IMG/VR virus record: IMGVR_UViG_2579778884_000008
Origin: a virus
Taxonomy: Duplodnaviria; Heunggongvirae; Uroviricota; Caudoviricetes
Length of the DNA: 14,340 bases
Direction: 5' to 3' (one strand)
Below are positions 6,001 to 9,000 of the stretch, piece after piece; the first letter of the stretch is position 1, and each line of letters starts with the position of its first letter. The position numbers are program-made.

Positions 6001-9000
6001 TCAACCGAGCGTAGAACTTCTACAAACTCACGGTTGATGACTCCCGGCCCAGCACTGACTTCTATATCAAGAACGTCAATCTTGAAGTATTTGGAATGGC
6101 TGACAGTTGATTGTATTGGTTGCACTGTACTGTCTGACATATTTCCAACGCCAGAAGATAACCATTCTGCGCGCACACCCAAAGCGTTCGCGATCTCCAC
6201 GATTTTAGTTGTTTGATTAGCTTTCCCTGTTTCGATTTTCTGAATAGCAGCCTGGCTAACCCCGACCAAATCCCCAAGCGCCTTTTGTGTAAGGCCTCGC
6301 GCTAATCTGGCTTCTTTAAGTCTTTCTGAGAGTGTTGTTTTCATAGTCCAAATGTACAACCAAGGTTTTATTCCATCAAACGAAAATGGTTGTTGACTAA
6401 AAACAACCATAGTTTTAATCTTGATTCAAATTAACCACGGAGGTTGTTATGAACCCAGCTATCAAAACAGCGATCAATATCGTTGGTTCACAAAAGAAAC
6501 TGGGCGCTGCTTGCGAAGTTTCACAGCAGGCCGTCTATAAGTGGCTTCACAACAAAGCAAAGGTATCCCCTGAACATGTCGGCAGCATTGTTACGGCTAC
6601 TGGTGGAGTAGTGAAGGCATACCAGATTCGCCCGGATCTTCCGAAGTTGTTTCCACACACCGAAAAGAACGCAGCTTAAATTTCCATTTCACGCTCTTTA
6701 ACAATAAGCAATCAACTTAACAGTCAATTCAAACTAAAGGAGTCAATTATGCAACCACTTACATACCAACAGACTAGCGGATTTAGCCCGACTGCGGTGA
6801 TAAATCGTTCTCAAACAAAACAGGTGCCAGGCCACGAAAAAATCCGTGATGCCGTCCGCGCCTGGTCGGCTGTAGATAATCAGGATGTCGTTGCCACACT
6901 CATTGTGAATGAGTATCTGGAGCAGGGCGGCGGCACCATCGATTTCCCTGATGATGTCAGCCGTGCACGCCAGAAGCTGTTCCGCTTCCTCGATAACAAA
7001 TTCGATTCTGAAAAATACCGAAATAACGTGCGTGAACTGACCCCGGCAATTCTGGCGGTACTACCGCTGGAATATCGCGGTTACCTGGTTGAGCAGGATA
7101 GCTTCATGGCTAGGTTGGCTGAAATGGAAAAGGAACTCAGTGAGGCAAAACAGGCTGTCATTCTCAACGCACCACGCCACCAGAAACTGAAGGAAATTAG
7201 TGAAGGTATTGTGTCGATGTTTCGTGTGGACCCAGATCTGGCTGGTCCATTGATGGCGATGGTTACTACCATGCTGGGGGCGATATGACAGGTTCAGAAA
7301 TGGCGAAAGCCGGTCTGCTGGAACAGAACCGACTTTCAGGTGCAAATCGTAACACACTCATTGCGGGAGGAATTATGGCAAACACTGCTGAGATATTCAA
7401 TTTTCCAGTGCCGGATGCGGCACAAAAGGAGCCGCGCGTGGCAGATCTCGATGATGGTTATACGCGCATTGCAAATGAGTTGCTGGAAGCTGTGATGCTG
7501 GCCGGATTAACACAGCACCAGCTTCTGGTCTTTCTGGCTGTCATGCGCAAAACATATGGCTTTAATAAAAAACTGGATTGGGTTAGCAACGAGCAACTTT
7601 CCGAATTAACCGGGATATTGCCGCACAAGTGTTCTGCTGCAAAAAGTGTTCTGGTAAAGCGTGGGATTTTTATTCAGAGCGGGCGGAATACCGGCATTAA
7701 TAATGTGGTCAGTGAATGGTCAACATTACCCGAATCAGGTAAGAAAAATAAAGTTTACCTGAAAGAGGTAAATTTACCTGAATCAGGTAAAAAAAGTTTA
7801 CCCAAATCAGGTAAAGGCGTTTACCCGAATCAGGTAAACACAAAAGACAAACTAACAAAAGACAATATAAAACCTTTTTCGTCCGAGAATTCTGGCGAAT
7901 CCTCTGACCAACCAGAAAACGATCTTCCTGTGGTGAAACCGGATGCTGCAATTCAGAGCGGCAGCAAGTGGGGGACAGCAGAAGACCTGACCGCCGCAGA
8001 GTGGATGTTTGACATGGTGAAGACCATCGCGCCATCAGCCAGAAAACCGAATTTTGCAGGGTGGGCTAACGATATCCGCCTGATGCGTGAACGTGACGGA
8101 CGTAACCACCGCGACATGTGCGTGCTGTTCCGCTGGGCATGCCAGGACAACTTCTGGTCCGGTAACGTGCTAAGTCCGGCCAAACTCCGCGACAAGTGGA
8201 CCCAACTCGAAATCAACCGTAACAAGCAACAGGCAGGCGTGACAGCTAGCAAACCAAAACTCGACCTGACAAACACAGACTGGATTTACGGGGTGGATCT
8301 ATGAAAAACATCGCCGCACAGATGATTAACTTTGACCGTGAGCAGATGCGTCGGATCGCCAACAACATGCCGGAACAGTACGACGAAAAGCCGCAGGTAC
8401 AGCAGGTAGCGCAGATAATCAACGGTGTATTCAGCCAGTTACTGGCAACTTTCCCGGCGAGCCTGGCTAATCGTGACCAGAACGAACTGAACGAAATCCG
8501 CCGCCAGTGGGTTCTGGCTTTCCGGGAAAACGGGATCACCACGATGGAGCAGGTGAGCGACGGAATGCGTGTTGCCCGTCGGCAGAATAGACCATTTCTG
8601 CCATCACCCGGGCAGTTTGTTGCATGGTGCCGGGAAGAAGCATCCGTTACCGCCGGGCTGCCAAACGTCAGCGAGCTGGTTGATATGGTTTACGAGTATT
8701 GCCGGAAGCGTGGTCTGTATCCGGATGCAGAGTCTTATCCGTGGAAATCAAACGCGCACTACTGGCTGGTTACCAACCTGTATCAGAACATGCGGGCCAA
8801 TGCGTTGACTGACGCGGAATTACGGCGCAAGGCTGCCGATGAACTGGCCTGTATGACCGCGCGAATTAACCGTGGTGAGGCTATACCTGAACCAGTAAAA
8901 CAACTTCCTGTCATGGGCGGTAGGCCTCTAAATCGTGCACAGGCTCTGGCGAAGATCGCAGAAATCAAAGCTAAGTTCGGGCTGAAAGGAGCGATGAAAT

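Follow-up and report, generated by a model that had tools for sequence, protein, structure and literature searches.

A consensus boxA in the cro-cII spacer of an N-less lambdoid prophage, and its possible N-independent use

What might a consensus boxA do in a lambdoid phage that carries no N gene? In its textbook settings, boxA acts together with N in phage lambda, and alone in ribosomal RNA (rrn) operons. The question is raised by a stretch of DNA of 14,340 nucleotides (nt), IMG/VR virus record IMGVR_UViG_2579778884_000008 (here called the window, meaning the whole of this stretch), which comes from a prophage of a very common, lambda-like E. coli type and represents its early region. A reading made from the sequence alone (the sequence-only reading) had pointed to a boxA in the spacer between cro and cII, with no boxB stem-loop and no N gene, and had proposed either N-independent processive antitermination of the PR transcript by NusB and NusE (S10), or a remnant of a nut site. 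The present analysis confirms the element and both of these absences, and places the phage, as an N-less lambdoid, among the relatives of phi80, HK639 and Bievrevirus. The explanation that we prefer, tentatively and at slightly less than an even chance, is that the boxA is a functional, N-independent loading site for NusB and S10, which counters Rho at the untranslated gap between cro and cII. The features concerned are as follows.

6393-6421, + strand: putative promoter PR (TTGACT, 17 nt, TAATCT), inside palindromic operators ATGGTTGTT..AACAACCAT
6449-6679, + strand: open reading frame (ORF) of the cro-like repressor, YdaS family, 76 amino acids (aa), first gene of the rightward early operon
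6680-6748, + strand: untranslated cro-cII spacer, 69 nt, unstructured, C-rich and G-poor (rut-like), with no boxB hairpin
6692-6705, + strand: consensus boxA CGCTCTTTAACAAT, read from the sequence; predicted NusB/S10 site on the PR transcript
within the spacer: boxA-bearing RNA, a 19-mer, CACGCUCUUUAACAAUAAG
6737-6742, + strand: Shine-Dalgarno sequence AAGGAG of the cII-like gene, 31 nt 3' of boxA
6749-7288, + strand: ORF of the cII-like gene, YdaT family, 179 aa, with its ATG at 6749

The boxA lies 12 nt past the cro stop codon and 57 nt ahead of the ATG of the cII-like gene. Its 13-mer GCTCTTTAACAAT occurs once in the window and is identical to the boxA of the E. coli rrnB leader, CACTGCTCTTTAACAATTTATC, as read from MG1655. 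It was present in none of 200 dinucleotide-preserving shuffles, which excludes a chance occurrence. It also contains, as GCTCTTTAACA at 6693-6703, a perfect match to GYTCTTTAANA, the functional boxA consensus of Baniulyte et al. (2017, PMC5725501). The claim that this boxA is closer to the ribosomal one than the boxA of lambda is holds true, and yet it is not a distinctive property, as boxA of the CGCTCTTTAACA type is also found in the nutR and nutL sites of the other genera examined. No boxC (TGTGTGGG) is present at boxA, and no second boxA occurs on either strand of the window with up to two mismatches, so that there is no nutL-type partner.

The names cro and cII, used for the flanking genes in the sequence-only reading, are right as to position and not as to a lambda-type identity. 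The upstream ORF matches Pfam YdaS_toxin (E = 4e-17), with a weaker match to P22_Cro, and is labelled Cro in Escherichia phage PhiR34_1; the downstream ORF matches YdaT_toxin (E = 9e-30), and is annotated in relatives as cII or CII-like. YdaT has been described as the CII equivalent (PMC9986795).

The spacer that surrounds boxA is predicted to be open RNA. The 101 nt from 6660 to 6760 fold at -5.6 kcal/mol (z = +0.62), 147 of 200 shuffles folding equally well or better, and the best local hairpin within 50 nt 3' of boxA reaches -0.8 kcal/mol; there is no boxB. Since the RNA around boxA is unstructured, the site should be accessible, and it lies on the coding strand between the cro stop and the cII start, in a single-stranded and ribosome-free setting. 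The composition of the spacer (A27 C15 G6 T21) gives a C/G ratio of about 2.5, the highest in the region. It forms the one ribosome-free gap in an otherwise tightly packed operon, at the position equivalent to lambda nutR/tR1, and Rho would be expected to load there. Gene order and the operator- and promoter-like sequence lead us to infer that the spacer is transcribed from PR, which scores below the threshold of the consensus promoter scan and was assigned by its position between cI and cro. A role of the spacer at the level of DNA, as a YdaT operator (TTGATT-N6-AATCAA, PMC9986795), was considered and rejected, there being no such site in it with up to two mismatches.

The absence of N was examined in several ways. 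Between the putative leftward promoter PL and kil there is no ORF of 40 aa or more, scans against Pfam and PHROGs assign none of the early ORFs to an N family, and no N is annotated in PhiR34_1, which is 100% identical over positions 5100-7400 (the 2.3 kb compared), or in IdasGreatGrand, which with PhiR47_2 and PhiR26_1 is 96-97% identical over the same region. An Rfam scan of the whole window at the gathering thresholds found no families. A covariance model for the put antiterminator RNA was built from 34 HK022/HK639-type put sequences. It gives 93 bits to HK022 putL, 90 bits to HK639 putL and 43 bits to HK022 putR; the best score in the window is 7.4 bits (E = 2.7), inside gene O, and nothing was found in the Bievrevirus phage 4A7 either. 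Given that N, nutL and put are all absent, the activity of boxA, if any, must be N-independent.

A boxA that works on its own has precedents. NusB:NusE binds the rrnG boxA at 5-8 nM, against 80-90 nM for the lambda nut boxA (PMC2800207). In front of Salmonella CRISPR arrays, a boxA alone keeps Rho from terminating their transcription (Stringer et al. 2020, PMC7665894), and suhB is controlled by a boxA alone (Baniulyte et al. 2017, PMC5725501). Identity to the rrnG/rrnB boxA suggests that the boxA of the window is a high-affinity site for the host NusB-S10 (NusE) heterodimer. We propose that polymerase starting from PR would read cro and then, as position and sequence indicate, the 69-nt untranslated and unstructured spacer with its excess of C over G. 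The boxA RNA would emerge single-stranded and, to judge from its identity to the rrn boxA, would bind NusB-S10. NusG, NusA and SuhB would then join to form a Nus complex of the rrn/CRISPR type on the polymerase, and this complex would block Rho in the gap that ribosomes leave free and, further downstream, wherever translation is poor, allowing cII (YdaT), O and P to be expressed without N. An N-independent function of this kind, which the sequence-only reading had put forward, is plausible. O and P are translationally packed 3' of cII, and the expression of both is the reach of any boxA effect.

7285-8304, + strand: O (Pfam Phage_rep_O), overlapped by cII
8301-9002, + strand: P (Pfam Phage_lambda_P)

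By sequence comparison the boxA is nut-derived, and the suggestion of a nut-site ancestry is thus borne out. Homologues of the Cro protein with 63-86% identity are found in 11 other Enterobacterales species, and in 5 of these a boxA and a hairpin follow cro at the same distance from its stop; the boxA motif stands at the same post-cro position in five other genera. The loci of Buttiauxella, Photorhabdus and Arsenophonus also have an opposite-strand boxA upstream, and are therefore true nutL/nutR pairs. A nutL partner accompanies the post-cro boxA-hairpin in L020, L021 and L023.

The closest counterpart is a solo module in IMG/VR lambdoid contigs, which consists of CGCTCTTTAACAAT, 17-18 nt, and the hairpin GGCUGA-NUNA-UCAGCC. 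It was observed at loci L208, L220, L228, L239, L301, L312, L352, L371, L375, L387, L388, L396, L409, L423, L431 and L441, in a single copy per locus and with no matching hairpin on the other strand. Variants of the module were gathered by the hairpin alone, to avoid selection on boxA. This gave 14 distinct variants, every one immediately 5' of a YdaT-type cII, with a distance of 57-81 nt from the module to the cII start. All 14 keep GYTCTTTAANA, the only differences in boxA being at Y (C/T) and N (C/A), plus one AAC for AAT just past the motif. None of the 25 columns 5' of boxA is invariant, and the linker varies. Two of the loci, L208 and L220, carry the module together with a bona fide putL, and have neither an N gene nor room for one. 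The retention of boxA in all variants beside divergent flanks, and the presence of putL in these N-less phages, argue for an N-independent use of boxA.

The spacer of the window aligns with this module over its full length with one gap of 21-25 nt; depending on the alignment, what is missing is the 3' arm of the hairpin or its 5' arm together with the linker. The single gap implies that the boxA-only state was derived by deletion; the hairpin of the sister modules would have been lost in this way, leaving a minimal, boxA-only form. The 5' flank and the cro gene differ between the window and the module. The alternatives to the solo module in front of a YdaT-type cII are a short hairpin junction without boxA, which is found in most contexts, or putR (L104 and L201). 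At L125, a boxA and hairpin stand ahead of a lambda-type cII. In IMG/VR, the bare 15-mer CGCTCTTTAACAATC occurs in 104 contexts, 35 of them without a hairpin; these were not used as evidence, because in so large a collection chance matches are inseparable from real sites without context. The literature searched gave no description of the boxA-linker-hairpin module, nor, in a search that was incomplete, of a solo boxA in N-less lambdoid phages.

It is worth adding that at L159:1202-1290 (+ strand) and at L176, both from IMG/VR, the 5' half of a putL (GTCGAACGGCGCGACTTTAAACCATGCGTCGGAACC) runs straight into a consensus boxA (GCTCTTTAACAATCTGG...). By its appearance, this hybrid arose by recombination of a put site with one of the nut type.

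The comparison with known systems shows where the element belongs. It resembles lambda nutR in standing after cro and before cII in the PR operon, in having the same boxA core, and in having homologous boxA-hairpins behind related cro genes. Unlike lambda nut, it comes without boxB, nutL or an N gene; since each of these was looked for and not found, it falls outside the lambda nut family as that family is defined. Its boxA also has the full consensus CGCTCTTTAACAA, whereas that of lambda is shortened to CGCTCTTA. With the boxA of rrn leaders and spacers it shares the 13-nt identity to rrnB, a single-stranded context, independence from N by necessity, and Rho as the expected target. It differs from them in having no boxB-like hairpin upstream and no boxC, and in standing within a protein-coding operon, not before a long untranslated RNA.

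In its match to the functional consensus, and in its predicted transcribed, single-stranded and ribosome-free position, the element has the sequence-level features of a stand-alone Nus-factor boxA. Like the boxA elements of CRISPR arrays (PMC7665894) and suhB (PMC5725501), that of the window is solitary, lies outside rrn, matches GYTCTTTAANA, stands no more than 100 nt from the feature that would be regulated, and coincides in part with a stretch rich in pyrimidines and poor in G. The placement is of the suhB type, with 31 nt from boxA to AAGGAG, within the distance tolerance described (PMC5725501), and a rut-like spacer (C15/G6). Those elements are chromosomal and experimentally validated, whereas this one is phage-borne, nut-derived and predicted from sequence. 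The put sites of HK022 and HK639 are comparable as N-independent early antitermination in lambdoid phages, and in the YdaT-type loci L104 and L201 putR occupies the same cro-cII position; but put is a two-stem RNA, whereas the spacer is unstructured and the window scores at most 7.4 bits against 43-93 bits for known puts. The solo module has the same 14-mer, the same position and the same downstream gene family, and differs from the window in the 21-25 nt that the latter lacks, and hence in the hairpin.

The promoter and leader of the left operon are as follows.

5365-5360 (TTGACG) and 5342-5337 (TTAAAT), - strand: putative PL
5144-5330, - strand: PL leader, about 190 nt, structured, from the predicted +1 of PL; no N gene, boxA or HK022-type put

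The leader has the stems AUCGCAAC/GUUGCGAU and AAUUUCAGC/GCUGAAAUU, and even where relatives have another immunity cassette its conservation is 95-98%. The same slot holds putL, directly 5' of the same kil leader, in L109, L111, L192 and L208 (IMG/VR), and in phi80 it holds nutL-N-tL1. The PL leader, which is no part of the boxA element, is a candidate for a different cis-acting antiterminator RNA. It was not assigned to a known type: a likeness to stem II of put, seen by eye, was given no membership by the covariance model, and there was no significant BLAST match to the nutL/N leader of phi80. Neither blastn nor nhmmer found the leader repeated in the right operon as a putR-like partner. The 'M3-like RNA' of HK639 was also dismissed as a right-operon antiterminator, since the phi80 record shows M3 to be a homologue of oop; as cII overlaps O, the window has no gap for an M3-like RNA.

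In the PL leaders of the phi80 type (L301, L239, L431, L441, and phi80 itself at L341:1632-2047, - strand) a long, structured and conserved stretch was observed 3' of the nutL boxA, ..CACCGGGYGCGAUCCGGYCGGUG..CCCCGCGCGAGAGCGAGAACGGCGUGAGAACGGG.., and several contigs have no homologue of the phi80 N after it. Within the PL leader of the window there is an Arg-rich ORF of 31 codons at 5168-5263 (- strand), LNFSRLRGVRGVKRTRERRCDQLKLTQHFIP, encoding ..RGVKRTRERR.. and beginning with TTG. In 5 of 8 relatives CAG replaces its TAG stop and the frame joins the kil ORF; Perceval annotates there a 'Kil' of 139 aa. Its only PHROGs match is the Kil domain, with no N family, and the window holds 8 ORFs of comparable Arg richness.

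A wider proposal, which we offer as speculative and somewhat doubtful, is that two protein-free devices share the work of early antitermination in a large N-less family of lambdoid phages, which is allied to phi80, HK639 and Bievrevirus and occurs in over a quarter of complete E. coli genomes. One would be the PL-leader RNA, which is putL in some members and the 190-nt structured leader here; the other would be the solo boxA at the nutR position, which would use the rRNA-type machinery of the host (NusB, S10 and SuhB) either to tune the PR operon or to shield it from Rho. This would be the first rrn-style, N-independent control by boxA in a phage.

Several observations weigh against a functional N-independent boxA, or limit what it could do. 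The phages 4A7, Perceval, PhiR68_2 and PhiR30_1, which have an identical cII-O-P and other immunity cassettes, are viable with a cro-cII junction of 30 nt that contains no boxA, and phi80 and HK639 likewise have a 30-nt junction without boxA. Because relatives with the same cII-O-P do without it, boxA is dispensable for expression of the right operon. The hairpin is conserved along with boxA in all 14 sister modules, and its loss here may be a loss of function. At some module loci the leader resembles that of phi80 and its nutL-type boxA is degenerate, and the phages concerned may have an N-like factor that is not recognised. There is also a strong intrinsic terminator downstream, at 13529-13549. 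We know of no rrn-type complex that passes intrinsic terminators well, and a boxA-only complex is not expected to pass this one. The viable relatives and the terminator together argue against a role that is necessary or processive.

The boxA-less junction is a fixed structure. A small conserved hairpin (GCCGCnTAAnnGGCGGC) has the cro stop in its loop and is followed by CTAACCACGAAAGGGAAAGCAATG, and otherwise unrelated cro genes share this junction; it is carried by phi80, HK639, the Bievrevirus phages and most putL phages (L004/L005:3960-4002, L003:4070-4110 and L341:4470-4512). A hairpin junction leaves Rho no room for loading, so that boxA may matter only where the spacer is long.

Conservation gives a divided answer. 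With a 421-nt query (PR, cro, the spacer and the start of cII) and a coverage of at least 80%, the cassette was found in 1507 of 5426 complete E. coli genomes (about 28%), almost always at an identity of at least 99%, and it is carried by isolated viable phages; this wide spread and the viable phages were counted in favour of a functional site. The boxA is invariant in 55 IMG/VR copies of the cassette and in the E. coli variants examined. Weighing on the other side, the cassette is near-clonal, and its invariance within the lineage has no statistical weight: the spacer variants seen within the lineage, in E. coli genomes and IMG/VR, amount to about 4 events, with none in boxA (P about 0.4 by chance). 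There is too little diversity in the cassette for the within-lineage test to be informative. The conservation among close homologues that had been looked for is thus partial: boxA is invariant within the cassette and kept to consensus in the module family, and is absent where the immunity cassette is another one.

The main alternative is that the boxA is an inert relic of a nutR-type boxA-hairpin module, left over after the deletion that destroyed the hairpin, intact only through recent spread and without effect on expression. This is conceivable, and we judge it to be rather unlikely. It is consistent with the alignment gap, which takes out one arm of the hairpin, with the sister modules, whose joint retention of hairpin and boxA suggests a need for both, with the sister phages that manage the same downstream genes without boxA, with the near-clonality that makes lineage conservation uninformative, and with the absence of N. 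It fits less well with a perfect 14-mer that is kept despite the adjacent deletion and beside a 5' flank unrelated to that of the sister modules, or with the evolutionary success of the cassette, and in the rrn, CRISPR and suhB contexts boxA alone suffices. Moreover, an exposed consensus boxA on an abundant early E. coli transcript would be expected to bind NusB/S10, whether selected for or not. What such binding would do is seen differently in a further alternative, in which the site acts as at suhB: the boxA-loaded Nus complex would loop the RNA to the polymerase and hinder the 30S subunit at the Shine-Dalgarno sequence of cII (YdaT), with less cII translation and more Rho termination, making a tunable, tR1-like attenuator of the cro/cII ratio. 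The AAGGAG 31 nt past boxA and the rut-like spacer suit this well, as the suhB boxA overlaps a rut region and represses translation at up to 100 nt from the Shine-Dalgarno sequence, and lambda N/nutL similarly represses translation of N (both in PMC5725501). The position of all module variants, 57-81 nt ahead of a YdaT-type cII start, also fits a gene-specific rather than an operon-wide role. On the other hand, phage boxA elements elsewhere precede different genes, such as the lambda-type cII at L125, and lytic growth would suffer from repression of cII combined with polarity on O and P. We consider repression of this kind unlikely, though far from negligible.

Two other explanations carry little weight. 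The boxA could be a true N-dependent nutR, served by an N-like protein and a boxB equivalent that have both escaped recognition, the protein being, for example, the Arg-rich ORF of the PL leader or the boxB equivalent an unconventional RNA. N-like genes are indeed known from odd places, such as gp17 of mEp021 in the right operon (PMC11893012). However, no hairpin follows boxA, there is no nutL partner, and Pfam and PHROGs show no N; the Arg-rich ORF itself found no support as a hidden N, given its TTG start, the lack of a spaced Shine-Dalgarno sequence, its unconserved stop and its lack of an N-family match, and its Arg richness is not exceptional in the window. This explanation is largely refuted, and we regard it as very improbable. 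A chance match in an AT-rich intergenic region has a negligible probability. Sequences like the boxA 12-mer, with 2 mismatches allowed, are expected about 1.6 times per window, but the exact 13-mer is absent from the shuffles, and the same motif recurs after cro in five other genera and in the 14 module variants, by which chance is refuted.

If the N-independent loading site is real, lambdoid phages can make direct use of the Nus machinery of their host, and early genes would have a third way of being controlled without N, in addition to put RNA and the loss of terminators of the nin type. If the element is inert, it documents the decay of a nut site after the replacement of N. As about 28% of complete E. 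coli genomes carry the cassette, and so do phages that are easily grown (PhiR34_1, IdasGreatGrand and Turner), the idea is directly testable.

The Bievrevirus phages 4A7, 4C10 and Perceval share everything with the window except the immunity cassette, and HK639 and phi80 are more remote. The remaining features are listed below.

left part of the window, - strand: integrase, then exo, bet, gam and kil
5516-5533, - strand: intrinsic terminator, CCCGGTCACCGTGCCGGG then TTTTCTTTT, after cI and upstream of PL, closing the immunity transcript
5655-6347, - strand: ORF of the cI-like repressor (start at 6347 or 6410; Pfam HTH_3 and Peptidase_S24; annotated as cI in relatives)
9003-9251: AT-rich stretch preceding the inverse-autotransporter gene
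9252-13517, + strand: inverse-autotransporter gene, 1421 aa, with internal repeats of about 357 nt, identified from the annotation of NZ_CP076706
13529-13549, + strand: strong intrinsic terminator, GGGGAGGGCTTAGCCCTCCCT then CTTTTT, from the terminator scan, 3' of the inverse-autotransporter gene
13554-13982, - strand: ORF of 142 aa
14138-14340, + strand: start of an IS-type transposase orfA (MELQDWRKEPRKNYSNEFKLRMVELA...)

The inverse-autotransporter gene is inserted after P, where ren and emrE-like genes stand in the relatives, and it looks like a moron. The transposase orfA begins just after the 142-aa ORF, and this copy of the prophage may be interrupted 3' of the moron.

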